Of a DNA stretch of 51,064 nt, positions 7,641-49,543 are shown piece by piece; position 1 is the stretch's first letter; every line of letters starts with the position of its first letter. The stretch comes from Chloroflexota bacterium (GTDB lineage: Bacteria > Chloroflexota > DTOL01 > DAOUCN01). Under the pieces are notes generated by a model. It had not been told where the DNA came from, did not search any database, and was given only the letters and a program-made list of their open reading frames with translations. The position numbers were made by a program, and so were the translations under genes. The stretch is from positions 1 to 51,064 of the forward strand of contig DAOUCN010000125.1 of NCBI GenBank assembly GCA_034431995.1, in the 5' to 3' direction.

Positions 7641-7729
7641 CAGTCCCTCCTGTGGGTGTGCTTGATGCCTTCCCAACAGCTGGGGCAGCTGAAGAAGGCA
7701 CGAAGCAAGGTGAGCAGCGATTGGATCAT
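7640..7729 (-). CDS. Small 29-aa CxxC peptide (MIQSLLTLLRAFFSCPSCWEGIKHTHRRD)
   Basis: Translated by hand. Strong RBS AAAGGAGG before the ATG at 7729. Its TGA overlaps the ATG of the 517-aa gene (TGATG). Confidence 0.45.
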   Translation of the reverse strand: MIQSLLTLLRAFFSCPSCWEGIKHTHRRD

Positions 7730-7876
7730 GGAACCTCCTTTGTGATTGTGTGGATGGATGAGGTGCGGCGCACCGCCATTGTAGCGCGGCGGCCACTACT
7801 ACGTCTCAAGACGCAGCTCTCCCATCCTCTCTCCCTCCCTTCTAGCCGCCGGGGACGGGAGGGCTGGAGCAGGAGT

Positions 7877-7919
7877 TCCGTATACTGCTCTCTCCGTATA
7901 CTGGACGATCCGTATACTG
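7877..7919. promoter_or_regulatory. Three direct repeats of TCCGTATACTG with 16-bp periodicity (operator-like array)
   Basis: Copies at 7877-7887, 7893-7903 and 7909-7919. Located in the divergent intergenic region, between element copy b and the first leftward gene. Confidence 0.6.
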
Positions 7920-7926
7920 GCAAGAC

Positions 7927-7966
7927 CCTTCGCGCTTCGCGCTCAGGGGGCCTGGGGTTTGGGCTC
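7927..7966 (-). repeat. Dispersed bipartite element, copy b (head of the leftward block)
   Basis: Minus-strand reading GAGCCCAAACCCCAGGCCCCCTGAGCGCGAAGCGCGAAGG; hairpin GCGC-GAA-GCGC. Confidence 0.85.
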
Positions 7967-8040
7967 CTCTCTCTCTCTCTCTCTCTAATATGTATATGTG
8001 TTGTGTGTGTGTGTGTGTGTGTGTGTGGAGAGAGAGAGAG
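7967..8040. repeat. Microsatellite cluster: (CT)10 7967-7986, alternating AT/GT stretch, (TG)13 8002-8027, (GA)6 8028-8040
   Basis: Read directly. The (CT) and (GA) runs are mutually complementary, so they form inverted-repeat arms around the TG tract. Confidence 0.95.
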
Positions 8041-8085
8041 GGAGGTCCCCGGCCCCCTACTTGCACAGGGGGGCTGAATTAAAGG

Positions 8086-8110
8086 ATGTATACGCGCACG
8101 CGCACGCGCG
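8086..8110. repeat. 25-nt strictly alternating purine-pyrimidine tract (ATGTATACGCGCACGCGCACGCGCG)
   Basis: Read directly. Includes a degenerate GTATACG operator-like core and 2.5 units of CGCGCA. Confidence 0.85.
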
Positions 8111-8197
8111 GTCGTCATTATTCGCGGCGCGGCGTTGCGGCGCAACGGTTGAATAATTCCCGGCGGTCGCCGTCTATGGGCGCAGGAGGATCGTTTA

Positions 8198-8458
8198 ATG
8201 TACGGCGGATTCGAGTGTCCCGAGTGTGGATCGCACGAGCACACGGTCGTGGAGGAGGGTCCGAGCGCCAACTGCCTCGCGCATCTGAAGGAACAAATCC
8301 GACTGCTGAGGGTCACGCGCACCGCGACGCCGCTCGCGTATGCGGACGCGGTTCTTCTAATGTTGCGCGCCCTCCGCACCGGACCGTCCGCGTCGGCCAT
8401 CGTCGAGCGGTTGAATAAACGCGGCGTGTTCTTCGTCCGAGTTGACAAGCCGGGTTGA
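8198..8458 (+). CDS. Small hypothetical protein with an N-terminal CPEC..H.H motif (86 aa)
   Basis: ORF track; ATG preceded by AGGAGGA. First gene of the rightward block. Confidence 0.7.
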   Translation: MYGGFECPECGSHEHTVVEEGPSANCLAHLKEQIRLLRVTRTATPLAYADAVLLMLRALRTGPSASAIVERLNKRGVFFVRVDKPG

Positions 8459-8492
8459 GTCGGCTAACATTACAAGCGAAAGGAGAGAGGTC

Positions 8493-8864
8493 ATGCCCCG
8501 CACCGCAATTCGGAAGCGGCTCTATGGCGTCACGCAGACGCAGTTGGAAGAGGTCTATCAGCTGCGTGAGCAGGCCAAGGAGCTCAAGGCTCATCTTCGG
8601 GTGATCGAGGAGCTCAAGGCTCATCTTCGGGTGATCGAGGATCTCGTAGGAGAGCGAGAGGAGATGATCGTGGATCTCCTCACACACGAGGCATCGGTCG
8701 AGCCCGGCCCCATCACCCCAAACCCCCGCGAGGAGGCTCGTCGGGCACCCAAGTGGAAGGAGGCGTACATCGAGGCATTGGGATTCGAGGCAGCACAGAA
8801 GGTGATCGAAGCCACGAAGCCGCATGTGCGCGTCGTGCTCGATCTGATTCGTACCCACAACTAA
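8493..8864 (+). CDS. Coiled-coil-like hypothetical protein (123 aa) carrying an in-frame 10-codon tandem duplication
   Basis: ORF 8442..8864 trimmed to the ATG at 8493 behind AAAGGAGAGAGG. ELKAHLRVIE occurs twice in tandem. Confidence 0.7.
   Translation: MPRTAIRKRLYGVTQTQLEEVYQLREQAKELKAHLRVIEELKAHLRVIEDLVGEREEMIVDLLTHEASVEPGPITPNPREEARRAPKWKEAYIEALGFEAAQKVIEATKPHVRVVLDLIRTHN
8581..8640 (+). repeat. Perfect 2 x 30-bp tandem duplication inside a CDS
   Basis: AGCTCAAGGCTCATCTTCGGGTGATCGAGG at 8581-8610 and again at 8611-8640. Confidence 0.95.
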
Positions 8865-8878
8865 GAAGGAGATACCCC

Positions 8879-9265
8879 ATGAGTTCTGCTACCAAGAACG
8901 CTGCGATTCTGCTCGCCTACTACAAGCGCGTCGGCCTGGCCTCCAGCGCCGTCGGCATCACCGACCCGACGTTCCGTCGTGCCCTACGCGGCAAGCCCGT
9001 GCGCTGGGGAACGACGACGGCCCTGAGTCGTGCTGTGGCTGCCCTGACGCCTCGAGAAGAGATCAGCAAACGCCTGACAAAGGCCCAGACCAAGCTCAAC
9101 CGCAAACACCAGACCAGTATGGCGACCTTCCTGCCCGACATCCAGTGGGGGATGGGAAGCATCGTCCGCAAGAACACAGTGACGGTCGAAGAACTCCTGG
9201 CCCTGCGCGACCAGATCCTCGACGTGGCTGCGCGCCTCAATGGCCAGAGCCAGGCTGCAGCGTAA
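8879..9265 (+). CDS. Hypothetical protein (128 aa); DNA-binding role is only a weak guess
   Basis: ORF 8753..9265 trimmed to the ATG at 8879 behind GAAGGAGA. Confidence 0.6.
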   Translation: MSSATKNAAILLAYYKRVGLASSAVGITDPTFRRALRGKPVRWGTTTALSRAVAALTPREEISKRLTKAQTKLNRKHQTSMATFLPDIQWGMGSIVRKNTVTVEELLALRDQILDVAARLNGQSQAAA

Positions 9266-32441: not shown

Positions 32442-32891
32442 TTACGGGGTGTTCGTGACGGTCGGGGCAGGCCCCGGCGTCTGAATCGCCTGCGTACGGT
32501 CGAACCAGATGCAGTCCCAGTCTCGGCCAGTGTCGTTCGTCGAGTTGACCAGCGAACTGATCCGGATGGCAACGCTGTTGTTGGCCACAACACGAGTGCC
32601 GCTGTGGACCAACGCGCCATCGAGGGAGGCCGGCACGGAGCAGATGATCGGATCTCCGATCTGGATGCCTGGCACGGCAACGACGGTCTCGGCCGACTGC
32701 CCAAGGTTGAGGGAGGCAGGGTCTACGCGAACCGAGATATGGACCCAGGCCGCGAAGTCGGACTTGCCATCGCGGGGCACCACCGTCTGCGTCGGCGTAT
32801 TCGTGGGAGTCAGGGTCGGGGTATTGGTCTGGGCAAGAGCCTCCCCGCCCACCAGGAGGCAGGCGAGGAGGATCAGGGCACGCTTCAGCAT
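32442..32891 (-). CDS. Secreted protein: Sec-type signal peptide plus TPT-rich linkers (149 aa)
   Basis: ORF 32442..33020 trimmed to the ATG at 32891. MLKRALILLACLLVGGEALAQ then TNTPTLTPTNTPTQT; C-terminus TPGPAPTVTNTP. Confidence 0.65.
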   Translation of the reverse strand: MLKRALILLACLLVGGEALAQTNTPTLTPTNTPTQTVVPRDGKSDFAAWVHISVRVDPASLNLGQSAETVVAVPGIQIGDPIICSVPASLDGALVHSGTRVVANNSVAIRISSLVNSTNDTGRDWDCIWFDRTQAIQTPGPAPTVTNTP

Positions 32892-36065: not shown

Positions 36066-37951
36066 GCGGGCGGGCCTCCTTGACCCCCACCGCCTTGCGG
36101 TTCACCGCCACCCATCGCGCCCATTATCTGCTGGGCCATACCCTGCAGACCTATAGCCGTATTTGCCTCCACGCCGCCGATGGTCGGCTGCTGCTGGACG
36201 AGGTCGTCGAAGGCGATCAGGAAGGTCTCGGGGTCGCGAATCTGGTCGAAGGTCAGGATCAGGCGCTCCAGGGCCTCGGAGGAGGCGATGGCGATCCGGC
36301 GCGCAACCTCGCGCAGCTGGTCGGGCACCTGGGGATTCGAGGTCATGGCTACCAGCTGCATGACCTTTTCGTAGTAGCTGCCCATGAGGTTCATGAGGAG
36401 CAGGGCGTTCTGGCGGTCGCTGTCGCGGTTGGAACTCGCGGAACTGGCGGTCAGTTCGAGGGCGACGGCCTCGTCGAAGTCCGGAGAGGTCATGGTTGTC
36501 AGGACGGCTTCGGCATGCTGGTCCCCGACGATGCGGCGGATCTTGTCCTGCGCGGCCAGGTCACCAGCCAGGAGACGCTCCTGGTAGCGGAAGAGGGCGT
36601 GGCGCACGGCGTCTGCGACAGCCAGGCGCATGCCGTCGAACGCGGGGGTGAAGCGCTTGTTCACCTGCTGCAGCACCGACAGGGCGGTGATGCCGGGCGT
36701 TCGTGTGCCGAGCGGAGCGGACGGGCGGGCCTGCGAGATGTCAGAGACACCTACGCGGCGCTCGGCATAGGCCATGAGGATCGCTTCCGCGATCTGTGAA
36801 GAGGGGTAGACGTCTCCCAGCTGGAGGGCGGCGACGCTGTTCTTGGGGTCCTCGGAGAGGAGGACCTTGTTGGGCCAGATCGTCATCGTCTCGTCGATCT
36901 CGCCCTGTTTGCCGATCCACATGCGGCAGTTGGCCAGCATCATGTTCAGCATCCGGTGGTTGTGGGTCTCGGAGATCTCCTCCTCCAAGGGCTTCAGCAT
37001 CTCCAGGGGTCCCATCCCATAGAACAAGTGGGGACGCAGCTGGTAGCGCATGGCCACGAAGGGGCGACGCTGGAAGGGGTTCCACCGGCAGCGCAGGATC
37101 GACTTCGAGCTCCGGTCGTAGGTGATGAGGAGGTCTTCGGCGCGGCCGTCCCCGTCCACGTCGTAGTAGGCGTAGATGTCCCAGATCTCGTAGAGGTCGC
37201 GGGTCTCTTCGCCGGACTTGCGCTGACGGCCCAGCTGCTCGCGCTTCTGACGCACCGTGTCATCGGCCCCAGCGGTCTGCGCGGCGGTAATGTCCCAGCC
37301 CATCGTCTTCTGGCGCAGGACCATCTCGTCCTTGGTCAGCCAGTAGCGCATGGCGACCCAGCGAGCGTCCTGCAAATCAGAGGCCGCACCACCAGGGACC
37401 AGGAAGTCCTGGATGGGGACGCAGAAGATGGAGGGGCCAATATGGGAGAGCTCGACGGTCTTGGTCTTGCGGTGCCGGTTGATCCAGGGGATGTAGAGGA
37501 CCGCCGTGCCCAGCTGGACGTTGTCCAGGAGCGCATTGTCCACGGACCCGCGCAGGCCCCACTCGTTGGCCACGCCCCAGTTGATGAACTTCTGCAGGCC
37601 CTTGGCCGCAGCCGCGTACTTCGCGCCGATGGGCCGACAGGTCACGACCGGGGCCACCTGCCAGATTAGATCGACCGACTGGGCGTAGATGGCATCGGCC
37701 GCCATCGCGCCCACGGGAACCTCATAGTTGGGCGCGTTCTCGATGGGGACGTTGCGGATCTCCATCTTGGGCTGCGCCTCGTACATGCGGAGGCACTCGC
37801 GCCACATGGCTTCCAAGCTCGCCCGGGCGGAGAGCGCGTCTTCGAGCTCCTCTGTCACCCAGTTCGCCAACGCCTTGTAGGCGTCAGTGCGGGTAGACGG
37901 GCTGCCTTCGACGGGGAGAAGTTCGACGGTCTGCGTCAATTGAGTACCCAC
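36062..37951 (-). CDS. Portal protein (629 aa; start uncertain, GTG 37951 or TTG 37939)
   Basis: Size, position upstream of scaffold and capsid, an acidic YDVDGDGRAEDLL segment, and a Gly/Gln-rich C-terminus. Not verified by search. Confidence 0.7.
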   Translation of the reverse strand: MGTQLTQTVELLPVEGSPSTRTDAYKALANWVTEELEDALSARASLEAMWRECLRMYEAQPKMEIRNVPIENAPNYEVPVGAMAADAIYAQSVDLIWQVAPVVTCRPIGAKYAAAAKGLQKFINWGVANEWGLRGSVDNALLDNVQLGTAVLYIPWINRHRKTKTVELSHIGPSIFCVPIQDFLVPGGAASDLQDARWVAMRYWLTKDEMVLRQKTMGWDITAAQTAGADDTVRQKREQLGRQRKSGEETRDLYEIWDIYAYYDVDGDGRAEDLLITYDRSSKSILRCRWNPFQRRPFVAMRYQLRPHLFYGMGPLEMLKPLEEEISETHNHRMLNMMLANCRMWIGKQGEIDETMTIWPNKVLLSEDPKNSVAALQLGDVYPSSQIAEAILMAYAERRVGVSDISQARPSAPLGTRTPGITALSVLQQVNKRFTPAFDGMRLAVADAVRHALFRYQERLLAGDLAAQDKIRRIVGDQHAEAVLTTMTSPDFDEAVALELTASSASSNRDSDRQNALLLMNLMGSYYEKVMQLVAMTSNPQVPDQLREVARRIAIASSEALERLILTFDQIRDPETFLIAFDDLVQQQPTIGGVEANTAIGLQGMAQQIMGAMGGGEPQGGGGQGGPPA

Positions 37952-39105
37952 GCGACGAAGGTACCGGACGCCGGATCGACGGTCCCGCCAGACATGTTGC
38001 AGAAGATGACGCTGACGGTGTTCGCCGCGTTCGCGTACCCGTAGAAGATCCGCCCAGCGCCCTGAGCAGCGGTCGGCGCTCCCACGAAGACGGCGTCACC
38101 CGCTGCCGCGCCCGTGACCGTGATGGTCGAAGCGGCGGCGCAGTCCCCGTCCAGGGTGCTGCCGAAGTCGATGGTGCCTGTGCCCTTGTAGAGGCCAGAG
38201 AGGGTCGAGCCAGCTGCCGGGACCTTGAGGGTGGTAAAGACGCCTGTGTTCGGGGTCGTGGAGCCGATGGGGCCGGGGGACGTCCAGTCACCGCTATCCA
38301 GAAGATCGACGTTCAGGTTCGGCACCTTCGTCTGCGACGTGATGACGAGGGGCGGCGTGCCCGACGAGACGGTGGACGTGATGGTCGAGAAGGACGGGGT
38401 CGCGTTGGTGGCGACGCTCTGGCCGATGGCCACGCTGATGGTACCCGAGCCGTTGGTGACCGTGACCCCCGTGCCCCCAGTGATGGAGCCGACCGTCGGC
38501 TTGGCCCCGGTGGCGCCAATCAGCAGCTGGCCGTTGGTGAGCGTCACGCCCTCCAGATCGCCGGTCGCGTTGGACCGAATGCCCTGGTTGGGAGAGACAT
38601 CACCGTAGGGAACACGGGTGTAGAGTTGGGTGGAACTGGTGACCGACCCGCCGGAGGTGGTGATCTCCGCGATCACGATGCCGTCGTCGGCAGCCGCAAT
38701 CGTGGGCTCGGTGACCGAGGTACAGTCTACGAGGAAGTTGGTCGAACCCTGGCGAACGAAGTTGTCGATGGTCGAAGGGGTCGTATCCTTGGAGACCGCA
38801 AGCCAGCAGGTGTCGTTATCGGAGTAGGTGACCGAGCCAGACGCCGAGACATAGTACCCGCCGGGGAAGGCGATGCAGGACGAAATGGACTTCGTCAGCC
38901 CGGCCCCCGTCGAATGGGTACAACCCGACACCACGACCGAGTTGAAGATCAAGGCGTAGCGATCCGCGTCCTCCTGTTGTAGGAAGGACTGGAGCGTCGT
39001 CAGGAAGCTGGCTCCCGACGACGGCACCGTGTTGACTGTCTGGGTGGTCCCCTGGGCCCCGGAAGCCCAGAGGATCAGAGCCAGGAGCGCCCCCCAGCGC
39101 TGCAT
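37936..39105 (-). CDS. Tail-fibre-like protein with an N-terminal Sec-type signal sequence (389 aa)
   Basis: MQRWGALLALILWASGAQG. Fibre-type repeats LTNGQLLIGATGAKPTVGSITGGTGVTVTNGSGTISV and VPNLNVDLLD. Confidence 0.7.
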   Translation of the reverse strand: MQRWGALLALILWASGAQGTTQTVNTVPSSGASFLTTLQSFLQQEDADRYALIFNSVVVSGCTHSTGAGLTKSISSCIAFPGGYYVSASGSVTYSDNDTCWLAVSKDTTPSTIDNFVRQGSTNFLVDCTSVTEPTIAAADDGIVIAEITTSGGSVTSSTQLYTRVPYGDVSPNQGIRSNATGDLEGVTLTNGQLLIGATGAKPTVGSITGGTGVTVTNGSGTISVAIGQSVATNATPSFSTITSTVSSGTPPLVITSQTKVPNLNVDLLDSGDWTSPGPIGSTTPNTGVFTTLKVPAAGSTLSGLYKGTGTIDFGSTLDGDCAAASTITVTGAAAGDAVFVGAPTAAQGAGRIFYGYANAANTVSVIFCNMSGGTVDPASGTFVAWVLN

Positions 39106-39314
39106 TACGACGCCTTGCTGCCGCTTCGCGCCGACTCGGCATAGACGCCGTTGGTGGAGATCGCCTGCCGCATGGTGATCGCACCCGCTCCGAAGAAGAC
39201 GCCATCCGGGATGGCATCGAGGATGGGAACCTCAATGCCGAAGGCCGTCAGCACCGTCTTGGTCAGGTAGATCACCGCGAGCCAGAAGGTCTTGCTTTTC
39301 AGGAGGGCCATCAT
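39105..39314 (-). CDS. Holin-like small membrane protein (69 aa)
   Basis: Two hydrophobic helices and a charged C-terminus. Lies two genes downstream of the endolysin in the same operon. Confidence 0.5.
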   Translation of the reverse strand: MMALLKSKTFWLAVIYLTKTVLTAFGIEVPILDAIPDGVFFGAGAITMRQAISTNGVYAESARSGSKAS

Positions 39315-39424
39315 GAACTCCGCACGTTGCGAACCGACCCCGACTTGGGGGCCTTGCCGTTGCCCTTGCCTCCAGCCTTGGGGCCGGGCAGCTTCACTGA
39401 CTGACTATACACCTTCTTCATCAT
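39311..39424 (-). CDS. Small Lys/Gly-rich basic peptide (37 aa, MMKKVYSQSVKLPGPKAGGKGNGKAPKSGSVRNVRSS)
   Basis: Translated by hand. RBS GAGGAGA. 4-nt overlap with the holin-like gene. Confidence 0.4.
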   Translation of the reverse strand: MMKKVYSQSVKLPGPKAGGKGNGKAPKSGSVRNVRSS

Positions 39425-39442
39425 GTTGTCTCCTCTACCAGA

Positions 39443-39766
39443 TCATCGAACCCCTTGCCACTCGAAGCTGAAGTGGTTGCCGTCACCGAACCGGCCACCC
39501 CAGCGGGCCAGGGGATGTTGGGTTTCCCACCACTCCCCGAGCGAGCGGTAGTCTTCCGACTTCGTCAAGTAGTGGCCGGCGGGCCGGTCCAGCAAGAGAT
39601 CGACTGCCAGGCCTACCCGATGCGTCGAGTGCGGGTGCCCGTAGGTCACGCGAGGATCGCGGAAGGCATCGCGCAGGCGCGGCCAGTAGCCCTGTCGGAT
39701 GGCCTCGACAATGAGCCGAGCGACCAGTTCCGTGTGAGCGTATTGGAGTCGGAGGAGCTCACTCAT
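39443..39766 (-). CDS. Endolysin, peptidase M15 type (VanY / L-alanyl-D-glutamate peptidase-like) (107 aa)
   Basis: ORF 39443..39988 trimmed to the ATG at 39766 (MSELL...), downstream of element copy h. Zn-ligand pattern HSTHRVGLAVDL ... DGNHFS. Confidence 0.75.
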   Translation of the reverse strand: MSELLRLQYAHTELVARLIVEAIRQGYWPRLRDAFRDPRVTYGHPHSTHRVGLAVDLLLDRPAGHYLTKSEDYRSLGEWWETQHPLARWGGRFGDGNHFSFEWQGVR

Positions 39767-39998
39767 CGAAGGTGTCCTGCCACAAATCTCCTCGGCCTTC
39801 GGCCTCGGAGGGCTCGGGGTTTGAGCCGTCATCGTCCCACACAAGCTGCTGCGGGTAGAGCGTCTGCGGGTACGGGTTGGCGTTCCTCGGGGGGTAGGAA
39901 TAGACGAATTGGTAGGAGTCGCCCCGGTTGATCCACCACACGTCCGCTGACGCCAGCCCTGGGAGACCCAGGACCAGCGCCAGGACAAGGACGCGCAT
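39759..39998 (-). CDS. Small secreted protein (79 aa)
   Basis: Signal peptide MRVLVLALVLGLPGLASA. Its 3' end runs through element copy h. Confidence 0.55.
   Translation of the reverse strand: MRVLVLALVLGLPGLASADVWWINRGDSYQFVYSYPPRNANPYPQTLYPQQLVWDDDGSNPEPSEAEGRGDLWQDTFDE
39788..39827 (-). repeat. Dispersed bipartite element, copy h
   Basis: Minus-strand reading GGCTCAAACCCCGAGCCCTCCGAGGCCGAAGGCCGAGGAG; hairpin GGCC-GAA-GGCC. Confidence 0.85.
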
Positions 39999-40243
39999 TA
40001 GATGCCCCAGCCGTGGGGCGCGACGCTGAAGCCGAAGACGAAGGGCGCCCAGCCCTTGTAGGGGTCGGCGTCCGTGAAGACGGCCTTCAGGTCGTCCATC
40101 ATCACGCGGATGTGCTCGACCGTAGCCGCCACCTCCGCGTAGGGGATGCCGTCCGCGATCTTCACGCGCTGCTTCTCGGCGGTGAAGCCCGGCGGAACCG
40201 GGGTCGTGTAGTAGACAGTGACGTCGTAGAGTCCAGAGGGCAT
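39998..40243 (-). CDS. Hypothetical protein (81 aa)
   Basis: ORF track; RBS AAGGAGA. Confidence 0.65.
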   Translation of the reverse strand: MPSGLYDVTVYYTTPVPPGFTAEKQRVKIADGIPYAEVAATVEHIRVMMDDLKAVFTDADPYKGWAPFVFGFSVAPHGWGI

Positions 40244-40255
40244 GTTCGTGTCTCC

Positions 40256-40363
40256 TTACGGCAGATTATACCACACGGATTCGAGCCAGAAATGGTAGCA
40301 GAACGAGGCGAAGGTCGCCGCTCCCAGGAGCCACCAAAAGTGGCGGATCTCTCGGTTGGACAT
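40256..40363 (-). CDS. Small membrane peptide (35 aa, MSNREIRHFWWLLGAATFASFCYHFWLESVWYNLP)
   Basis: Translated by hand; TGATG coupling to the upstream gene. Confidence 0.4.
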   Translation of the reverse strand: MSNREIRHFWWLLGAATFASFCYHFWLESVWYNLP

Positions 40364-42459
40364 CAATCCGGTGCGGCCTTGTTGCAGGCAGGCAGGGTGC
40401 AGCTGTTGCACTTGGTCGCGTTGAGGCCGGTGTTGGTGTAGCTGGCCCCGCCGCCCGAGCAGACGCAGCCGCCCAGGGCGCCGTTGATGCCGCAGGAGCA
40501 GATGCGACAGATGTCGGTGTCGGACAGTTCGTGGTCCTCCACGAAGCAGGTGTCCACGGTGCCGGTCCAGCCGAAGTCACCGCCGCCAGCCTGGAAGGTG
40601 CCAGTCGTGGTGCTGCCGATGTCGCTCTGAGTCGCTGCGGAGCCGAAGCCGCTGCCGCCTGCGTAGGCCTTCAGTTCGTTGTTGGCGTCGTCGAAGGTGC
40701 AGGCTGCGAAGGTCAGGGAGTTGGCCGTCCAACTGTTCAGGGCCGTATTAGCGCTCACCGCGGCGGTCGCGGCCGGCTTGCTCTGACAGGTGACGTTGTT
40801 GTTGGTCGTGGTGCGCTGGATGTTCCAGCGGTTGGTCGCGCTGGTCCAGTACATCATGGTGCCGGCTTCGGCGTCCGTCGGCACATAGCCGTAGCAGCCC
40901 CAGGTGGCGCCCGCGACGCTGGCCAAGTTGATCTCGTTACAAGTGCCGGCGTCACAGCTGAGATACTCGCTGAGACTCGTGTCGGCCTGAGCGCCGCCGG
41001 AGCCGAAGGCATAGTGGCCGGACGTGGTGTCCTTCAAGACGTTGTTGTTGTTCGCCAGCGCGCAGTCGGTCGTGCAGGTGCCGGTCGAGGCGCGGGTCGC
41101 GCCCGAGGCCTCGTCCATCTCCCAGACCGCCACAAAGCTGGACGACCAGTCGGGGGCCGAGACGTCGCCGCTGGTGGCCGTCGGGGTAGCCGTCGGAGCC
41201 GGGGTGTTCGTGATGGTCGGCGTGCTGGTTACGGTGACGGTGGCGGTACGGGTGACCGTCGGGACCGGCGTGTCGAGCGTCGTCGGCGCGGCCTTGCACC
41301 AGAAAGCGCTGAAGTAGGTCTGCGTGTTGTCGTTGCAACTGGTCTCGGTGGCCGGACCGCCGGTCACCTCCATGCTGCCGTTCACCAGGCGCAGACCGTC
41401 CGTGTCGTCCGGAGCCGCTTGCTGCTGGATGTAGAAGTCGTCGCCCGTGATGTTGCCCGGACCCGCCAAGTTGTTCGAGATGTTCTGGGCACGGATGGCA
41501 TCGCACTCCTGGTGCGCGCAGCCGCTGGGAGTCCCCAACTCGTCGAAGAAGTCCTCCATCGTCACGACGCCCGTGATGGAGCACGCAGCCGGGCCAAAGG
41601 TCTGAACGTCGGCTCCCGTGCCGCAGTTGTTGCCGCCCGAGGTGCCGTTGCCGGTCCAGTTGAAGACGCCGCCTTCGGTGGAGTTGGCGACGTTCCACCA
41701 CGCGCCGTGATACACCACCGCGTTCTCGTTCAGGTGACTGCCGACTTCAACGGTGTTGGTGCCCAGGCCCCGGATCATGTTGGCGTCCGAGGCGGCACCC
41801 GTGCTGTGCGCCCAGATCACGGACTGGGTCGTGGCCATGTCGGACGTCTTGCCGACAAAGGCGTTCGCCGCCACGGGGGCGTCCCCGTTGTTGATATTCT
41901 GGATCATCACCAGACTGGCCGTCGTCAGGTTCCCGGCGTTCTGGAGCGTGATCGTGCGGGGCGAGGACCCGTTGCCCGTGTAGGTGAAGGTCCCGTGCCA
42001 ATTGGGCGCCGTAGACCACTCGTACCAGCAGAAGTTCTCCAAGTTCTCGTTGAGGCTATCGCCGTTGGTGACGTCCGTGGCGTTGGCGTCCACGATGAAG
42101 CCGTTACTGGAGTAGCCGTCGAAGAGCGACGTGCCGGTGTTGTTGACGCAGTTCGACTGCCCGCGCCCAAGAATACCGGCGCCGACCAGGGTCGGAGAGA
42201 GCCAGCGGTTGCAGAAGGCCTCGGACGTCGTGACCTTGTTGACGAAGAGGAGACCCGCATTGGTCGCGGGGATGCCGGTCTGAATGAGGCGGTTCTGGGT
42301 GCCGTCTCCCCGATAGCAGCCGTAGGCGAAGAGCCGAGGCGTCTCCTCCGTCGCGAGGGAGGTCAGCGGGCAGCAGCACTCCGTACACGGGCCATCGAGC
42401 CCAGGCGCCGCTTCGGGGAGCAGGCTGAGCAGGAGACCCAGAACCGCCAGCAGGCGCAT
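40363..42459 (-). CDS. Secreted Cys-rich two-domain protein with an internal TPT linker; C-terminal LamG/ConA-like domain is tentative (698 aa)
   Basis: Signal peptide MRLLAVLGLLLSLLPEAAPG. About 30 Cys. Linker TPVPTVTRTATVTVTSTPTITNTPAPTATPTATS. Confidence 0.75.
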   Translation of the reverse strand: MRLLAVLGLLLSLLPEAAPGLDGPCTECCCPLTSLATEETPRLFAYGCYRGDGTQNRLIQTGIPATNAGLLFVNKVTTSEAFCNRWLSPTLVGAGILGRGQSNCVNNTGTSLFDGYSSNGFIVDANATDVTNGDSLNENLENFCWYEWSTAPNWHGTFTYTGNGSSPRTITLQNAGNLTTASLVMIQNINNGDAPVAANAFVGKTSDMATTQSVIWAHSTGAASDANMIRGLGTNTVEVGSHLNENAVVYHGAWWNVANSTEGGVFNWTGNGTSGGNNCGTGADVQTFGPAACSITGVVTMEDFFDELGTPSGCAHQECDAIRAQNISNNLAGPGNITGDDFYIQQQAAPDDTDGLRLVNGSMEVTGGPATETSCNDNTQTYFSAFWCKAAPTTLDTPVPTVTRTATVTVTSTPTITNTPAPTATPTATSGDVSAPDWSSSFVAVWEMDEASGATRASTGTCTTDCALANNNNVLKDTTSGHYAFGSGGAQADTSLSEYLSCDAGTCNEINLASVAGATWGCYGYVPTDAEAGTMMYWTSATNRWNIQRTTTNNNVTCQSKPAATAAVSANTALNSWTANSLTFAACTFDDANNELKAYAGGSGFGSAATQSDIGSTTTGTFQAGGGDFGWTGTVDTCFVEDHELSDTDICRICSCGINGALGGCVCSGGGASYTNTGLNATKCNSCTLPACNKAAPD

Positions 42460-42460
42460 A

Positions 42461-42883
42461 TCAGGGGGTGTTGGTCGGGGTGGCCGTCGGCGTCTCGGTC
42501 GGCGTGGCCGTCGGGGTAGACGTGCGAACGTAGGCCTCGTCCACCGACAGGATCGCCCCGTCGGCGCTCATGCAGTAGAGTTCCTGGTCGGGGTACTTGC
42601 AGATCACTCGGCCGCTGCCGGCCGAGTAGCGGAAGCCCGAGCCCGTGCCGGGGGTCACCGACAGGAGCGCCGAGGTGTAGCCGCAGTAGGCGGCTCCAGC
42701 GGCATCGCTGTCTACCTGGATGGCCAGTTCCTCGCGGCCCGACTTCTGGCCGATGGCCTGCGGGGTGGCCGACAAGATGACCCGCGACGCGACCCGAAGA
42801 GACGAGACCTGTGCCGCGAACCCGGCAGCCGCCAGGACCAGGACGGTCGCGGCAACGAGAAGATGGAATCCATGCTTCGTCAT
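42461..42883 (-). CDS. Secreted protein with a C-terminal TPT repeat tail (140 aa)
   Basis: ORF 42461..42949 trimmed to the ATG at 42883. MTKHGFHLLVAATVLVLAAAGFAAQ; C-terminus TPTATPTETPTATPTNTP. Confidence 0.65.
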   Translation of the reverse strand: MTKHGFHLLVAATVLVLAAAGFAAQVSSLRVASRVILSATPQAIGQKSGREELAIQVDSDAAGAAYCGYTSALLSVTPGTGSGFRYSAGSGRVICKYPDQELYCMSADGAILSVDEAYVRTSTPTATPTETPTATPTNTP

Positions 42884-42890
42884 GACTGCC

Positions 42891-43163
42891 TCACTCGTGC
42901 TGCAAGAGGATCGTGCCGCCGGTCGGGATCGACGTGACGACCACGCCATCGACCCAGCCGACTAGGTCCTCGGAACGGGTCTCGTTGGCGTTCATGGCGC
43001 CGGAGTTGTAGATCACCTCGCCGTCGCTGTTGGTCAATTCGAAGTTCCCGCTGTTGGTGGTCGTGTAGCAGAAGATCCCGCCGCACAACTTGATCTTGTC
43101 CGGCCAGGTGTCCGCCTGCGCGGTCATCTGGAGCATCCCGTTGCCGAGTACCGAAACTGCCAT
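42891..43163 (-). CDS. Hypothetical protein (90 aa)
   Basis: ORF 42891..43235 trimmed to the ATG at 43163 (TGATG coupling). Confidence 0.55.
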   Translation of the reverse strand: MAVSVLGNGMLQMTAQADTWPDKIKLCGGIFCYTTTNSGNFELTNSDGEVIYNSGAMNANETRSEDLVGWVDGVVVTSIPTGGTILLQHE

Positions 43164-43327
43164 CAGTGGGTCTCCTTCGCCTTCTGCTGCTCGGTCAGCA
43201 TCCCGTTTACGGCAGCAGTGATCTGGCTGCGCCAAGCGTACCAGGTCCGTACCTCACCGACAAGCACAACAAAGGCCAAGGCAACGAGGATGCCCGCGCC
43301 AAAGGCCAGCGTTCGATGGAACCACAT
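43163..43327 (-). CDS. Small single-pass membrane protein (54 aa, MWFHRTLAFGAGILVALAFVVLVGEV...)
   Basis: Translated by hand; RBS AGGAGG 4 nt before the ATG at 43327. Confidence 0.5.
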   Translation of the reverse strand: MWFHRTLAFGAGILVALAFVVLVGEVRTWYAWRSQITAAVNGMLTEQQKAKETH

Positions 43328-43335
43328 GGAACCTC

Positions 43336-45306
43336 CTAGTTGTTCGAGGACGCGATCTCGATCCAGTAGCCCAAGTCCTGAGCAAAGTAGAGGGTCAGGC
43401 TGTCCCCTGTCCCCAGCGTCTTGTTGATGCTGCCGTTCAGCTTCACATTGGACCCTGCGAGCGAGGACTCGTCTTGAATCACGATGGAATCGGCGTTGTC
43501 CACGTTGACCAGGATCAGGAACCGCGCCTTGCCGCCCGTGATGCCGGCATCGTCCGGGTCCGCGATGGTCGGGATAGACGTCAGGGTCAACGTCCCACCA
43601 GTCGAGTTCGTCAGGGCCTTGGCCGTCGTGTCGGAGCCGATGACCGCCGAGGCGCCCGCCAGGTTCTGGGCCGTTGCCGGGAAGACCGTCGGGCTCTCGT
43701 TCGAGATGCCGACGATGTTGGTCCCAGTCAGGACCGGGATGCGGAGGCCTACGTCGTCTACGATGGTCCCGGCCCCGCCATTCGCGCCCACGTCGAACGC
43801 ACGGCGCGTGTTGACCGTGGCACCCGCATCGACCTGAATGCCCGCCGAGTAGCTGTAGAGCGTCCCGATGGTCAGGGTGCCAGCGGTGGTGCCGAAGGTC
43901 GGGCTGGTGTCGAAACTCTTCCAGAGGGTGATCGTCGAGTTGGCGTCGGTCGTGACCGTCGAATCATCGACGAACGTGCTGATCGAGCTCCAGGTCCGCG
44001 ACTCTCCGGTCTGGTTGGTGATCGTCAAGCTGTTCTGGAAGAGCTCGATGGTGCCGTTGTCGTCGTTCCACTGGGTCGATCCGAGCAACACGAAGCCCGC
44101 GAACAGCCCGTTGGCCGCGCTGATGACCACGCTGTCCGAGAAGATGCTCATGACCCCATCGTACGCCGGAACGCCGCCCGTGACCGTGGCCCCACCTGCG
44201 AAGTAGGTGGTCTGCCCCTCCATGTTGACGTCCTCGAAGTAAGACGCGGGGACGGACGCGCCCGAAGCGCCCAAGTTGCCGCCGTCCGAGATCAGGGCGC
44301 CGGTCTCGCCGTTTAGGTGCCACTGAGTCATGCAGCTATTAACCGCCGATCCCGTCGATCCAGATGGGCACGACTGAAACTGGATGTTGCCCCCAGTCCC
44401 GGCACCCGTTCCGGCGCCACCGCGCAGCTGAAGTGGTCCCGCATTCTTGTCGGTCCCTCCAGACAGGTCGGACGCCCGCACCATGCCCGCGACAGACTCG
44501 CTGGTCGTGGCGCAGCCGTGGCCGACGCAGACGTTCTGGATGGGATGGATCGAACTCCCGATGCCGATCTTGTTGCTGCTGGACTCCGAGCACTGGTCCC
44601 CGATGCAGTTGCCGCCATTGGTGCAGTTCGCGCCCCGGCCGATGCAGATCGGGCTGGTGCCCGTGCAGCCCAGGTTCAGTGCGCCGAGGCAGACACCGCC
44701 CGTCGCGGTTGCGATGCCCAGGTAGGTCTGACCCAGCTGAACGGTCTGGTCGCCAGTGACCGTGCATTCGCTTCCGACGCACGCTGAGACCGAACCAGTG
44801 ATGGTACAGAGATCACCCACACAGGCGCCTTGCGCGGTCGAACACGACGAGCCATAGCCGACAGTGGTGCAGTTTGCGGCCGTCGAGGACGCACTCTTGC
44901 CGATGGCGATGCTCTGCAAGGCGGCGGCCGATGCCCCGTGCCCGACTGCAACGGAACTGACGCCATCCGCCGCCGCACCCGTCCCAACGAGTGAACTGTT
45001 CAGGCCCGCGCCCGGGCACGAGCAGTCCGTGGCGACGACGCCCGTGACGATGGGCTCGAAGGCCCCGCCGTTGACCGAGGCGACCAGCTGATCGGCTACG
45101 GCATCGCACTGGATGGCGCAGCGATTGGCCAATGCCGGGGTCGGGGTCGCAGAGACGCCCTTCAGGTTGACCTGAACACGGTCGCCGTCCTTGTCCTTCT
45201 CGCCTGCCAGCTTCGTCTCGGCCAGGGAAGAGTCGAACTCGCCCGCGTGCTGCGCGCACGCCATCGTGGGCAGCAAGAGAGCCAGGGCTAGGATCAGACG
45301 CTTCAT
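43336..45306 (-). CDS. Secreted or lipoprotein-like Cys-rich fibre/adhesin protein with YadA-head-like (Hep_Hag-like) repeats (656 aa)
   Basis: MKRLILALALLLPTMACAQ. Repeats SVAVGHGASA / SIAIGKSASS / TTVGYGSS. About 25 Cys. Confidence 0.75.
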   Translation of the reverse strand: MKRLILALALLLPTMACAQHAGEFDSSLAETKLAGEKDKDGDRVQVNLKGVSATPTPALANRCAIQCDAVADQLVASVNGGAFEPIVTGVVATDCSCPGAGLNSSLVGTGAAADGVSSVAVGHGASAAALQSIAIGKSASSTAANCTTVGYGSSCSTAQGACVGDLCTITGSVSACVGSECTVTGDQTVQLGQTYLGIATATGGVCLGALNLGCTGTSPICIGRGANCTNGGNCIGDQCSESSSNKIGIGSSIHPIQNVCVGHGCATTSESVAGMVRASDLSGGTDKNAGPLQLRGGAGTGAGTGGNIQFQSCPSGSTGSAVNSCMTQWHLNGETGALISDGGNLGASGASVPASYFEDVNMEGQTTYFAGGATVTGGVPAYDGVMSIFSDSVVISAANGLFAGFVLLGSTQWNDDNGTIELFQNSLTITNQTGESRTWSSISTFVDDSTVTTDANSTITLWKSFDTSPTFGTTAGTLTIGTLYSYSAGIQVDAGATVNTRRAFDVGANGGAGTIVDDVGLRIPVLTGTNIVGISNESPTVFPATAQNLAGASAVIGSDTTAKALTNSTGGTLTLTSIPTIADPDDAGITGGKARFLILVNVDNADSIVIQDESSLAGSNVKLNGSINKTLGTGDSLTLYFAQDLGYWIEIASSNN

Positions 45307-46993: not shown

Positions 46994-47158
46994 TTACTTG
47001 GACGTCGAGCGGTTGATCCCACCACCCTTGGTGGGGTTCCCGCCTCGGCCGCTGATCCCGTAGGTCTTCTTCGGGGTGGCCGCGCCCGACTTGCCCTGCT
47101 TGTGGTTGTTCGTCTCCTTGCTGGAGACGCGCTTCAGGCCGGTGTCGAAGTCACTCAT
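46994..47158 (-). CDS. Small Lys/Gly-rich basic protein (54 aa, MSDFDTGLKRVSSKETNNHKQGKSGAATPKK...)
   Basis: Translated by hand; TGATG coupling to the upstream gene. Confidence 0.4.
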   Translation of the reverse strand: MSDFDTGLKRVSSKETNNHKQGKSGAATPKKTYGISGRGGNPTKGGGINRSTSK

Positions 47159-47499
47159 CACTCAGTCTCCTTCTTGTTCGCTGCGATGGCTCGATCGATC
47201 TTGTGCTCGATCCGTTCTAGCTGTTTGACGACGTGGGGTAGGGCGCCTTGGATCTCTGCGATCTTCTCGCCGTGTGCGGCTCCGGTCTTGGTCAGTTCGT
47301 TGATCGAGTTGTTGACGTTGGTCAGCCATAGCACACAGCCAGAGCTAATCAAAGCAGCAATGATGCCAAGCACCCACTTGAGGGCCGGGTCCATGCTCGG
47401 GGGCGGCGGGAACTCGTGGTTGTGCTCGTCGAGAACAGTCAGACGTTTACCATGCGGCGTGTGCTCGCTACCGTTGAGTGATTCCGCCGTGTCTATCAT
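47158..47499 (-). CDS. Membrane-anchored coiled-coil protein (113 aa)
   Basis: ORF track; TM segment WVLGIIAALISSGCVLWL followed by a helical tail. Confidence 0.6.
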   Translation of the reverse strand: MIDTAESLNGSEHTPHGKRLTVLDEHNHEFPPPPSMDPALKWVLGIIAALISSGCVLWLTNVNNSINELTKTGAAHGEKIAEIQGALPHVVKQLERIEHKIDRAIAANKKETE

Positions 47500-48109
47500 C
47501 CCACTCCCGCATTCGCCGCTCGATGTGTGCCGGTCCCGCTCCTGACTGGCGCAAGTAGCGTGCCAGTGCGTCTCGCTCTGCGTTCTTTAGAGCAGGTGCC
47601 GTCCGTTTGGGCAAGAGGGAACACGCCGAGGCTAGGGCATCGACGAGGTCTACGGTCTGGCCCATCGGGTGGGAGCGGAGCTCAGCCAAGAGCTCGACCT
47701 GGCTATCCTGCACGAACAGGCGGCCCTGCGCTATGATGGGCTGGAGGATCGAGCGGTTGCGGAAGTACTTGTCGATCTTGTTGGACTGCGGGACGCCCTG
47801 GAGGTTCAAGCGCTGGTTGGTGAAGCGGGCCTCGCGCCGGAGGGAGCCGCCGAAGAGGGAAGCCAGGCCGTTCTCCTCGATGCCGAAGATGATGGGCCTG
47901 AACTGGATGTTGATGCGGAAGATGTTCTCGATGATCCGGTCGGTCGAGGCGCGCTCGGCCCAGGTGTTCAGGACGAAGATCCGCTGCAGCCAGTCCTGAC
48001 CGACGGTCACGACGGCGGTGCGGGCGCGGGTCTTCTTCACGGTCTGCTTCCCGCCAGCGGGGTCGCAGAACGAGACGATGTCCGCGAGGCTACTGACGGG
48101 CTGTTCCAT
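47468..48109 (-). CDS. terL: Terminase large subunit, C-terminal RNase-H-like nuclease half as a separate ORF (213 aa)
   Basis: Acidic triad context FCDPAGG, FGIEENG and VDLVDAL in the usual order. Confidence 0.75.
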   Translation of the reverse strand: MEQPVSSLADIVSFCDPAGGKQTVKKTRARTAVVTVGQDWLQRIFVLNTWAERASTDRIIENIFRINIQFRPIIFGIEENGLASLFGGSLRREARFTNQRLNLQGVPQSNKIDKYFRNRSILQPIIAQGRLFVQDSQVELLAELRSHPMGQTVDLVDALASACSLLPKRTAPALKNAERDALARYLRQSGAGPAHIERRMREWDDRHGGITQR

Positions 48110-48392
48110 GTCGTGCGCGGCGGATCACACGCACTCGCCGAATGCAGCCGTGCGGGATGGCGAAGTAGCCGTTGGCCTCGTCGTGGCCGCGTCCAGCATC
48201 GCCCAGGAGGAGCGACAGGACGAGGTCCTTCTTGGTGGAGCCGATGATGTAGCCGGCTGCGCGGCAAGCCTGAGAGGTGGCGCGAGAGGCTTCCCCGCCG
48301 TCGGTCCAGGCGCTGTAGACGGCCGGATCGTCGAACTCGACTTCGATGATGGAGAACTGAGGCAGTTTGGGACCCTTGGTCAGTTTGGTCAT
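48090..48392 (-). CDS. Hypothetical 100-aa ORF nested between the two terminase halves
   Basis: ATGA overlap with the ATPase-half stop and a 20-nt overlap with the nuclease-half start. Protein-like composition. No domain recognised. Confidence 0.5.
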   Translation of the reverse strand: MTKLTKGPKLPQFSIIEVEFDDPAVYSAWTDGGEASRATSQACRAAGYIIGSTKKDLVLSLLLGDAGRGHDEANGYFAIPHGCIRRVRVIRRARHGTARQ

Positions 48393-49543
48393 GCGGACCG
48401 TCCTTTCCGGTGTTTGAAGAACTCGTCTCGTCCCAGTAGACGATCATACGAGTGCTTCGTCAAGCGCTGTCCCCGCAGGGGCTTGTGCTCGGCGGAAGGG
48501 GTAAAACGGGCGCGGTCCTCGGTCAGGGCGTCGAGCGGGGACTCCTCGAAAACCAGTTGATTATCCAGGACTTGGAAGCGACGCAGCAGCGTCATGTCGA
48601 AGTCCACGAGGTCGGGGTCCCCGGCGGAGTTCATGTAGAGGAGGGGAAACATGGTCCGCATCTCGCGCTGCAGGCGCTGCAGGGACTCTAGGGAGAATCG
48701 CTCGGGGAAGATGGGCTTGCCGTCCTCGATGGCCGCGCGACGCATGACCTCGACGGAATCGTCGGTGTCCATCAGCTGCTCGTAGATGTCTCCGATGGCC
48801 CAGCGCGTCCCAGTGATGATCTCCAGGGACTTGTCGGGATCATCCATCAGGGCGCGGCTGGTGGCATGCCAGTCCACGGTAGACTGCATGATGGTGGGGG
48901 AGTTGGCCGACTCCAAGTCGATCAGGTCGTCGAAGTAGTGAACGTTGAAGTGGTAGCCGGCGATGGTGCCGCCCACGCCGATGGTCTCGACCGAGGCCTC
49001 CTTGAAGATCTCCGGACGGGGCAGGAGGATGCGCTCAGCGTTCCAGTATTTGGCCTGGCGCTTCGGCTCGTCCCAAACGCGGTCGGGCCAGAGGGCCTTC
49101 AGAATCTGGTTGCTCTCGTAGACCATCATGATCTCGGAGAGGGTGGAGCGCGAGAGGTCGGCTGTCTTGGAGCCGAGGAGGATGCGGGTCGAGCGGCCAT
49201 CGGAGTGGCCGAGGTTGCCGACGCCGTCGGGGAACCAGACGTTGGCGCCGTCCGGCTGGATCAGCAGGTGAATGACGGCCGCCTTGCAGATGGTCGTCTT
49301 CAGGTGATCGCGGGGCATCAGCAGGAGTTTCCGGTAGGGCGGAACCCTCTGGAGCCAGTTGCAGACGGGGAGATGGAGGGAGGGCGAGAGGAGGCTGTAG
49401 CCCATCACCCCCTTGGCGAAGACGAAGAGGTTCGCCTCAGCCTGCTTCTTGAAGTCCGCGACGAACTGCCCGGCCTGTGTACTACCAGCCTGACGAACCT
49501 GGCCCGTGCGCGCGTCGAGGACCAGTTCCCTGGCGTCCATCAC
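48389..49543 (-). CDS. terL: Terminase large subunit, N-terminal ATPase half (384 aa; start GTG 49543 or ATG 49540)
   Basis: Walker-A-like MPRDHLKTT, Walker B HYFDDLID, coupling motif ITGTRW, and FPERFSLESLQRL...LYMNS. Confidence 0.8.
   Translation of the reverse strand: MMDARELVLDARTGQVRQAGSTQAGQFVADFKKQAEANLFVFAKGVMGYSLLSPSLHLPVCNWLQRVPPYRKLLLMPRDHLKTTICKAAVIHLLIQPDGANVWFPDGVGNLGHSDGRSTRILLGSKTADLSRSTLSEIMMVYESNQILKALWPDRVWDEPKRQAKYWNAERILLPRPEIFKEASVETIGVGGTIAGYHFNVHYFDDLIDLESANSPTIMQSTVDWHATSRALMDDPDKSLEIITGTRWAIGDIYEQLMDTDDSVEVMRRAAIEDGKPIFPERFSLESLQRLQREMRTMFPLLYMNSAGDPDLVDFDMTLLRRFQVLDNQLVFEESPLDALTEDRARFTPSAEHKPLRGQRLTKHSYDRLLGRDEFFKHRKGRSA

Follow-up and report, generated by a model that had tools for sequence, protein, structure and literature searches.

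By the textbook account, tailed phages assemble wholly in the cytoplasm, and their fibres are normally poor in cysteine and carry no export signals. Phage proteins that carry cleavable signals, depend on the Sec pathway and act in the envelope include the signal-peptide endolysin Lys44 of fOg44, Lom and Bor of lambda and Llp of T5. The T4 antiholin RI, a lysis regulator, is likewise a Sec-dependent phage protein (PMC8385771). Among cellular systems, the nearest described analogue of the proteins considered here may be the mosaic adhesive trimer (MAT) fibres of Bdellovibrio bacteriovorus, trimers resembling phage fibres that leave the cytoplasm through Sec and are displayed on a cell surface (Caulton et al. 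2024, PMC10769870). Here, the 51,064-nt contig DAOUCN010000125.1 of the Chloroflexota assembly GCA_034431995.1, referred to below in its full length as the window, is analysed with a focus on six late genes of the phage that it carries, whose products, among them fibre- and lectin-like proteins of 389, 656 and 698 aa, begin with N-termini that resemble Sec-type signal peptides.

The phage is an uncultured, short-tailed, lytic-looking podovirus. Our main reading, to which a probability of roughly 0.6 is assigned, is that all six N-termini function as Sec-type signal peptides, a trait shared by a whole phage clade. Judging from sequence comparison, the proteins that bear them are probably exported and are likely to undergo oxidative folding outside the cytoplasm. 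If this is true, Sec is the route taken by all fibre- and lectin-like proteins of an entire clade, whereas the textbook places all such steps in the cytoplasm.

Predicted signal peptides of the six proteins

The six open reading frames (ORFs) singled out in a preliminary description of the window, encoding proteins of 389, 79, 698, 140, 656 and 149 aa, are all present on the minus strand (Table 1). Signal peptides were called with our own heuristic scan for n-, h- and c-regions, not with a trained predictor; five E. coli signal peptides and LacZ served as test cases for the scan. All six proteins score positive, in agreement with the initial proposal, each having a hydrophobic core between a basic n-region and a site of the AxA type; the h-region comprises 10-14 residues in five of the six proteins and 19-21 in the 140-aa family, compared with the roughly 7-15 uncharged residues that are usual in substrates of signal peptidase I. 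Among approximately 57 other phage ORFs, the same scan flags one. The signal-encoding ATG of each gene is located 0-6 nt past the upstream stop codon or overlaps it: the 389- and 79-aa genes both have the junction TAATG, the 698-aa gene has TGAT-ATG and the 656-aa gene an ATGA overlap, and Shine-Dalgarno motifs of the GAGG type are found upstream of the 140- and 656-aa genes. Longer starts for the 140-aa gene (162 aa, at 42949) and the 149-aa gene (192 aa, at 33020) were rejected because of the overlaps with upstream genes that they would create (59 and 125 nt, respectively); they are also ruled out by the homologues, which begin at the signal.

Homologue searches and contig look-ups identified relatives of the phage in independent samples, denoted L005, L004, L006/L095 (a 53-kb contig) and L008-L010, along with two IMG/VR contigs, L002 and L003, in which the portal is 45% identical to that of the window phage. 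The residues themselves diverge, but the homologues in every family have retained a hydrophobic core after a basic residue, with small residues at positions -3 and -1. In the 698-, 140- and 149-aa families, signal-like N-termini are retained in L004, L005, L006, L008/9 and L095. The predicted sites of the 656-aa family illustrate this pattern: MKRLILALALLLPTMACA|Q (ACA|Q) in the window protein and ..SATASFA|Q, ..TGAYG|Q, ..LAVWA|Q and ..SYAFA|Q in homologues, sites of the AxA|Q type being present in five of the six homologues. More generally, small residues at -3 and -1 followed by Gln at +1 occur in 12 of 25 signals of the clade and in 32 of 103 signals of the family of the 698-aa protein, compared with 7% of the signal-like ORFs in the binned genome (Fisher p = 1e-9); the enrichment is seen at the predicted sites of the 656-, 149- and 140-aa proteins and their homologues. 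Either the mature N-termini of the phage proteins are capped with pyroglutamate or the true host differs from the bin; the Q-rule of Bacteroidetes (PMC5837995) offers a comparison.

Two other targeting routes were considered and rejected. A lipobox, raised in the preliminary description as possible for the 656-aa protein, is not borne out: TMAC is non-canonical with respect to [LVI][ASTVI][GAS]C, in which the Cys at +1 is invariant, and the Cys is absent from five of six homologues (P0005, P0006, P0007, the 411-aa protein of L005 and P0008, with SFAQ, AYGQ, VWAQ, AFAQ and AFSQ, respectively). The sixth homologue, the 630-aa protein of L004, does have Cys at -2, as in the window protein (IQACA), and likewise no lipobox. 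Tat targeting would involve a twin-arginine motif (S/T-R-R-x-F-L-K) after an extended n-region, and none of the six window proteins contains RR; three homologues of the 698-aa protein contain M-x-R-R, with n-regions of only 2-3 residues.

A fibre family with and without a signal

The 389-aa protein consists of a signal (residues 1-19, nt 39049-39105) with predicted cleavage at AQG|TTQ, a conserved N-terminal domain of approximately 150 aa with four Cys, fibre repeats and a C-terminal beta-sandwich tip. Its fibre character, suggested initially from repeats, is substantiated by the match to the tail fibre family phrog_31660 and by a shaft common to Collar-domain tail fibres. The AlphaFold2 (AF2) model has a mean predicted local distance difference test (pLDDT) score of 64; the best Foldseek matches are phage receptor-binding proteins, none of them significant (E >= 4e-3; none at E <= 0.001), and the family profile has no match in the PDB.

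This family amounts to a clean natural experiment, in which the same fibre domain occurs with and without a signal and putative disulfide cysteines. The close homologues P0160-P0162 keep the signal and six Cys. The N-terminal domain is shared with the fibres of L002 (2240-3376) and L003 (2964-4103), which lack a signal and have no in-frame sequence upstream. These fibres start with MTTQTVNP.. and MSEETINP.., exactly at the cleavage site predicted for the window protein (AQG|TTQTVN), and the N-terminal segment is therefore dispensable for the fold. At four columns of the N-terminal domain, the five members with a signal (the window protein, P0160-P0162 and the L005 homologue) all have Cys, and the two signal-less members from L002 and L003 have G/G, M/L, T/T and V/V. 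The L005 protein is no closer to the window protein than the L002 fibre (28% and 33% identity, respectively).

The L005 homologue (7504-9132, 542 aa) contains two hydrophobic segments, the second of which (FLFAVAFLCFAAVARA|Q) directly precedes the conserved fibre N-terminal domain. This protein may be the product of an in-frame fusion between a holin-like gene and the fibre gene, or its gene may have an internal start that went unrecognised.

Cysteine-rich lectin- and adhesin-like proteins

The six core virion proteins together contain 5 Cys in 3,657 residues (0.14%), compared with 4.3% of the residues in the 698-aa protein and 3.2% in the 656-aa protein. The initial estimate of 25-30 Cys in each of these large proteins is correct for the former (30) and too high for the latter (21). 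Only the 389-, 656- and 698-aa proteins have a fibre-like composition (GSTNVY >= 0.49, charged residues <= 0.12). The 835-, 1155- and 494-aa proteins were considered as signal-less fibres and rejected, being rich in helix formers and 24-27% charged, like ejection proteins. The composition scan thus revealed no signal-less fibre-like ORF in the phage genome, and therefore the phage has no recognisable receptor-binding protein that lacks a signal. In L002 and L003, signal-bearing, Cys-rich proteins of 1,604 and 1,159 aa are encoded upstream of the portal, and the larger contains a right-handed beta-helix.

In the 656-aa protein, the signal is followed by a conserved mature N-terminus, a TPTP hinge, Cys-rich beta-roll repeats resembling the YadA head, a GGxGTGxG motif and a conserved C-terminal domain of approximately 80 aa. 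At the profile level, the proposed YadA-head-like repeats are confirmed: the family profile matches heads of trimeric autotransporters in the PDB (BpaC, YadA, EibD, UspA1, Hep_Hag; E from 1.5e-8 to 6e-5), and Pfam YadA_head scores 20 bits in the window protein, below the cut-off of 25, and 25.0 bits in the L005 homologue. No YadA_anchor beta-barrel or coiled-coil stalk was detected in the 656-aa protein by the Pfam scan. The C-terminus is a fibre-tip-like domain, and that of the L005 homologue weakly matches Phage_depo_C.

Residues 44-388 of the 698-aa protein form a DUF7483-like beta domain, which is preceded by a signal (1-~20) and a CxxCCC motif. A Thr/Pro linker (391-418) connects this domain to a LamG jelly-roll (430-~640), and the C-terminal tail is conserved and rich in Cys. 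An exhaustive HMMER search assigned 219 cluster representatives to this LamG family. Among the aligned homologues, 59 of 81 match Laminin_G_3 (PF13385; best E 3e-28) and 7 of 81 match DUF7483 (PF24299); the window protein itself has no Pfam match at E <= 0.1 to either. The structure prediction that had been recommended yielded an AF2 model with a mean pLDDT of 82.6, consisting of an N-terminal helix, a disordered CCC segment, the beta domain, the disordered linker and a confident C-terminal jelly-roll (pLDDT ~90-97). The PDB entries matched by the C-terminal domain in Foldseek are of the ConA-like folds, comprising pentraxin, CBM40, sialidase lectin domains and laminin G (E ~1e-6). Among the best matches of the protein in BFVD are LamG proteins, a 'structural protein' of a Synechococcus phage and, at E 1e-14, a DUF7483 protein. 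The LamG-like domain suspected in this protein is supported by transitive homology and by its fold.

Many members of the LamG family are LamG-only proteins of approximately 290 aa in phage contexts, one of which is encoded next to two SU10_adaptor genes. A signal-like N-terminus is present in 97 of 131 full-length representatives, in many cases with CCCC directly after it, and the number of mature Cys in these 97 proteins is even in 80 and odd in 17 (p = 6e-11). Two homologues, P0119 and P0125, start with leaders similar to those of type IV prepilins (..GFTLLELLIVIGIL..), so that pilin-like proteins of cells, too, make use of the Cys-rich LamG module. In the window, a 34-aa hydrophobic peptide (MSNREIRHFWWLLGAATFASFCYHFWLESVWYNLP) is encoded at ~40259-40363, and its ATG overlaps the stop codon of the 698-aa gene.

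Small module proteins and lysis genes

The stop codon of the 140-aa gene is 1 nt before the ATG of the 698-aa gene, and every member of the 140-aa family is encoded directly upstream of a 698-family gene and is translationally coupled to it. A frameshift fusion of the two ORFs was rejected, given that their relative frame is +1 in the window and -1 in L005 and L006. All members of the 140-aa family end in the Thr/Pro tail with nothing after it and have three or five mature Cys, an odd number. With an h-region of 19-21 residues, this family may be an uncleaved signal anchor; it may serve as a membrane tether for the lectin, disulfide-linked to the CCC/CCCC N-terminus of the 698-aa protein. The Thr-Pro linkers said to be shared by three proteins are indeed common to the 698-, 140- and 149-aa proteins.

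The 149-aa gene directly follows the major capsid gene, and a homologue in L095 (6641-7108) occupies the same position and has a signal and two conserved Cys. A fusion of the 149-aa ORF to the capsid protein was rejected since the signal would become internal. The 79-aa gene is directly upstream of the endolysin gene and has a positional homologue in L006 (16666-16929); by analogy, its product may be a lysis regulator of the T4 RI type. Towards its 3' end, the 79-aa gene contains a copy of a dispersed element of approximately 40 nt (39788-39827), a short distance upstream of the position at which the endolysin gene starts (39766). Homologues of the 90-aa protein are encoded in L005 (4365-4682), L006 (11427-11699) and L008 (5889-6209), and its internal ATG is preceded by a GGAGA Shine-Dalgarno motif.

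Lysis genes are embedded in the same stretch, as had been noted: an M15 endolysin gene, which runs from 39443 to 39766, and a 69-aa holin-like gene, the stop codon of which overlaps the ATG of the 389-aa gene (TAATG). Endolysin homologues with VanY/M15_4 matches are present in L004, L005, L006 and L008, and the holin-like protein has no family match in Pfam or PHROGs. Searches against PHROGs returned nothing for the 656-, 698-, 140-, 149- and 79-aa families or for ten homologues. A 113-aa protein (47158-47499) has one transmembrane segment followed by a coiled coil, an i-spanin-like topology, without a lipoprotein partner and in a phage whose putative host lacks outer-membrane markers.

Table 1. 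Genes of the signal-protein module and the capsid-adjacent gene in the window
Product	Coordinates	Strand	Features	Evidence
149-aa protein, predicted exported	32442..32891	-	signal ..EALA|Q, Thr/Pro linker, beta domain with 2 mature Cys, Thr/Pro tail	signal scan
389-aa fibre-like protein	37936..39105	-		phrog_31660 tail fibre, E 9e-6
69-aa holin-like membrane protein	39105..39314	-		hydrophobic segments; homologue L095 228-407
M15-type peptidoglycan peptidase (endolysin)	39443..39766	-	107 aa from MSELL	Pfam Peptidase_M15_4, E 9e-4
79-aa small protein, predicted exported	39759..39998	-	no Cys; signal MRVLVLALVLGLPGLASA|D	signal scan
81-aa conserved module protein	39998..40243	-	no signal	homologues L006 16415-16669, L005 7192-7479
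698-aa lectin-like protein, predicted exported	40363..42459	-	30 Cys	homology, AF2, Foldseek
140-aa partner protein	42461..42883	-	long h-region, small 3-Cys domain, C-terminal Thr/Pro tail	five-locus family alignment
90-aa conserved module member	42891..43163	-	no signal; from MAVSVLG (longest ORF 114 aa)	homologues, Shine-Dalgarno motif
656-aa adhesin or fibre, predicted exported	43336..45306	-	21 Cys	profile and Pfam matches

Phage genome and putative host

The window is an entire contig, the longest in an assembly of 3.5 Mb with a GC content of 63%. Its two ends share an imperfect direct repeat of approximately 86 bp, which makes it probably a complete 51-kb phage genome. The GC content of the phage is 64%, which favours Ala, Leu, Gly and Val in translations. 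All late genes are on the minus strand, in the order large terminase (separate ATPase and nuclease ORFs), metallophosphoesterase, the signal-protein stretch, SU10-type portal, scaffold, capsid, two SU10_adaptor paralogues and large helical virion proteins. Matches to deposited phages are distant: the portal is only ~25% identical to those of the closest ones, and for the 656-, 698- and 389-aa proteins a tblastn search of 50,697 phage records gave no match or a single partial one at 22%.

The stretch between terminase and portal had been described as a 9.5-kb insert. This does not hold, as the same module is conserved in the same order across the phage clade: 127-aa protein, 656 family, 90-aa protein, 140 family, 698 family, 81-aa protein, 79 family and endolysin. 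The syntenic module was found in at least four related phage contigs (L005, L006, L008/L009 and L004). The split large terminase, with ATPase, nested and nuclease ORFs, is also kept in the relatives (window 47468-49543; L005 2-2328; L006 5746-7818; L008 1325-3545). The nested ORF varies, being an orphan of 100-102 aa in the window and L006 and the M15 endolysin homologue itself in L005 and L008.

The binned genome belongs to Chloroflexota, since its RpoB best matches Chloroflexota assemblies (76-82% identity). Neither Omp85 nor LpxC was found in it, which fits a phage without spanin genes. It encodes two VKOR genes, with a DsbA-like gene beside one of them. Thr/Pro linkers are present in 124 of its 2,858 ORFs, and signal-like N-termini occur in 43% of these ORFs compared with 14% overall. 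Between phage and bin, there is no match resembling a CRISPR spacer, and no homologues of the module proteins are encoded elsewhere in the binned genome. The sole nucleotide similarity involves Thr/Pro-linker DNA of another contig (C24:3245-3483), which matches window positions 42468-42514 at 97.6% over 41 nt in four repeated matches.

Discussion

The preliminary description left two options for the hydrophobic N-termini, export or an uncleaved anchor or assembly segment. Export is favoured here by four lines of comparative evidence, with the 140-aa family as a possible anchor. First, the n-, h- and c-regions and the small -3/-1 residues are conserved despite sequence divergence. Second, in the 389-aa family the presence of the signal is accompanied by four extra Cys. 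Third, the signal-bearing proteins are rich in Cys and the core virion proteins poor in it. Fourth, the Thr/Pro linkers match those in the secreted proteins of the putative host. From these patterns we infer translocation, cleavage, disulfide formation and glycan binding themselves.

The proposed sequence of events would be as follows. In the late phase, the 389-, 656- and 698-aa proteins and the small proteins of 79, 140 and 149 aa would be threaded through SecYEG. Signal peptidase I would cut five of them at AxA-type sites, often with Gln at +1, and the 140-aa family might stay anchored in the membrane. Outside the membrane, the cysteines would be oxidised to disulfides, plausibly by the VKOR/DsbA-like system of the host, and the Thr/Pro linkers are of a kind also present in secreted proteins of the putative Chloroflexota host. 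The mature products would be trimeric fibre or lectin proteins that bind envelope glycans. As a receptor-binding set held between membrane and wall, they could meet the particles built in the cytoplasm after the holin opens the membrane and before the wall fails.

If the proteins are exported, the odds that they constitute the receptor-binding set of the phage are about even, and we lean towards this role because they are the only fibre-like proteins that the phage encodes. Docking onto particles after membrane opening is kept in consideration because of the lack of a signal-less fibre and the shared N-terminal domain of the 389-aa family. The fullest version of this scenario, two-compartment virion assembly, is put forward only tentatively and is on balance doubtful: heads and tails would form in the cytoplasm, all host-recognition fibres and lectins would be exported through Sec, cleaved and disulfide-bonded, and docking would occur only between the action of the holin and that of the M15 endolysin. 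The 149-aa protein, encoded in a capsid-decoration position, would then possibly be exported too, and the 140-aa partner would perhaps act as a tether.

Several points weigh against working signals or against a receptor-binding role. The fibres of tailed phages assemble in the cytoplasm, and no published report of signal-bearing or exported tail fibres in tailed phages was found. In L002 and L003, a giant beta-helix protein with a signal is encoded in addition to a fibre without one, and the signal-bearing proteins may therefore have a role separate from that of the virion fibre. Many Cys of the 698-aa tail are in CxxC/CxC spacing and could bind metal instead of forming disulfides. The covariation of signal and Cys in the 389-aa family may go back to no more than one or two events in evolution. 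Binning, GC content and linker type are the basis of the host link, with no spacer match, and the +1 Gln preference of the phage signals is not seen in the secretome of the bin (31-48% versus 7%), which weakens the host assignment.

Among the alternatives, the one that survives best, although we regard it as the less probable course, is that the proteins are exported and never join the virion, and either mask the envelope-glycan receptors of the infected cell or act as secreted adhesins or decoys that remodel its surface or sheath. Masking of a receptor by a phage lipoprotein is exemplified by Llp of T5, which spares the loss of progeny on debris or infected cells, and signal-bearing exclusion proteins are also known in other phages (Lom and Bor of lambda, Ltp of TP-J34). 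LamG lectin and YadA-head modules are characteristic of adhesins on cell surfaces, wall-associated secreted proteins of the putative host have similar Thr/Pro linkers and tails, and the separate roles suggested by L002 and L003 would fit. However, a purely accessory function would leave the phage with no recognisable receptor-binding protein, as it has no fibre-like ORF without a signal. It would also have to accommodate the homology between the mature N-terminal domain of the 389-aa protein and that of the signal-less fibres of relatives, as well as the large outlay of approximately 12% of the genome, with tightly coupled translation in a late structural operon.

It is improbable that there is no export at all, the hydrophobic N-termini being uncleaved tethers, trimerisation helices or plugs, the fibres joining the tail in the cytoplasm and the Cys binding metal or oxidising after release. 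Cytoplasmic assembly is the rule in all studied tailed phages, and the anchor-like length of the h-regions in the 140-aa family, the two hydrophobic segments of the 542-aa L005 homologue and the CxxC-type spacing in the 698-aa tail are compatible with this explanation. Yet small -3/-1 residues are conserved in every family while the h-regions diverge, the signal-less homologues of the 389-aa protein start exactly at the predicted cleavage site, the gain of Cys in that family tracks the presence of the signal, and the core virion proteins are strongly depleted of Cys. Finally, an artefact of mis-called starts or of Ala/Leu-rich translations of GC-rich DNA, conceivable in a genome with 64% GC and with a crude scan that flags 14% of the ORFs in the bin when alternative starts are allowed, is effectively refuted by the retention of the feature in all homologues from independent samples, as well as being at odds with the single flag among the other phage ORFs and with starts fixed by coupling to upstream stops.

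Should the main reading, Sec-type signals in a whole clade, prove true, either receptor-binding proteins mature outside the cell and are added at lysis, or phages widely secrete look-alikes of receptor-binding proteins that manage the host surface. In either case, annotation as a tail fibre would no longer imply a cytoplasmic protein. Host-range prediction would change, and expression of such proteins for study should use an oxidising compartment and constructs with the signal removed. In the wider LamG family, most full-length representatives likewise begin with signal-like N-termini.

Comparison with known systems

The MAT fibres offer a precedent, by analogy, for Sec export of phage-fibre-like trimers. 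The likeness is an analogy of architecture: a signal, predicted in the phage proteins, is followed by a conserved N-terminal domain, a shaft resembling phage tail fibres and a variable glycan-binding tip. The difference is that MAT proteins are encoded by cellular genes of a predatory diderm and displayed on its own surface, whereas the genes described here belong to the late operon of a lytic-looking podovirus. The Pfam scan detected no S74 chaperone-protease in the window proteins.

The DUF7483/LamG structural proteins of cyanophages and uncultured Caudoviricetes have the same two-domain fold as the 698-aa protein, the BFVD matches being compared by fold only. Beyond this fold, the 698-aa protein and the majority of its relatives by sequence have a signal, a CCC(C) motif after it and 12-30 Cys, including the conserved Cys-rich tail. 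With trimeric autotransporter adhesins, which are Sec-exported surface adhesins, the 656-aa family, itself predicted to be exported, shares the repeats of the left-handed beta-roll head. However, the YadA_anchor barrel and the stalk are not present in the 656-aa protein, and the putative host has no outer-membrane markers; therefore, this protein is not a trimeric autotransporter adhesin and is only head-like.

The 79-aa protein, encoded next to the endolysin and holin genes, is similar to T4 RI in size, position and topology. Pfam and PHROGs scans revealed no sequence similarity between any of the six proteins and the known Sec-dependent phage proteins. The latter are small lysis regulators, enzymes and exclusion factors, one or two per genome, whereas the window phage encodes six candidates, including every fibre-like protein. 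This probable combination of phage fibre and lectin modules with Sec export would be a route that has not been described for tailed phages.

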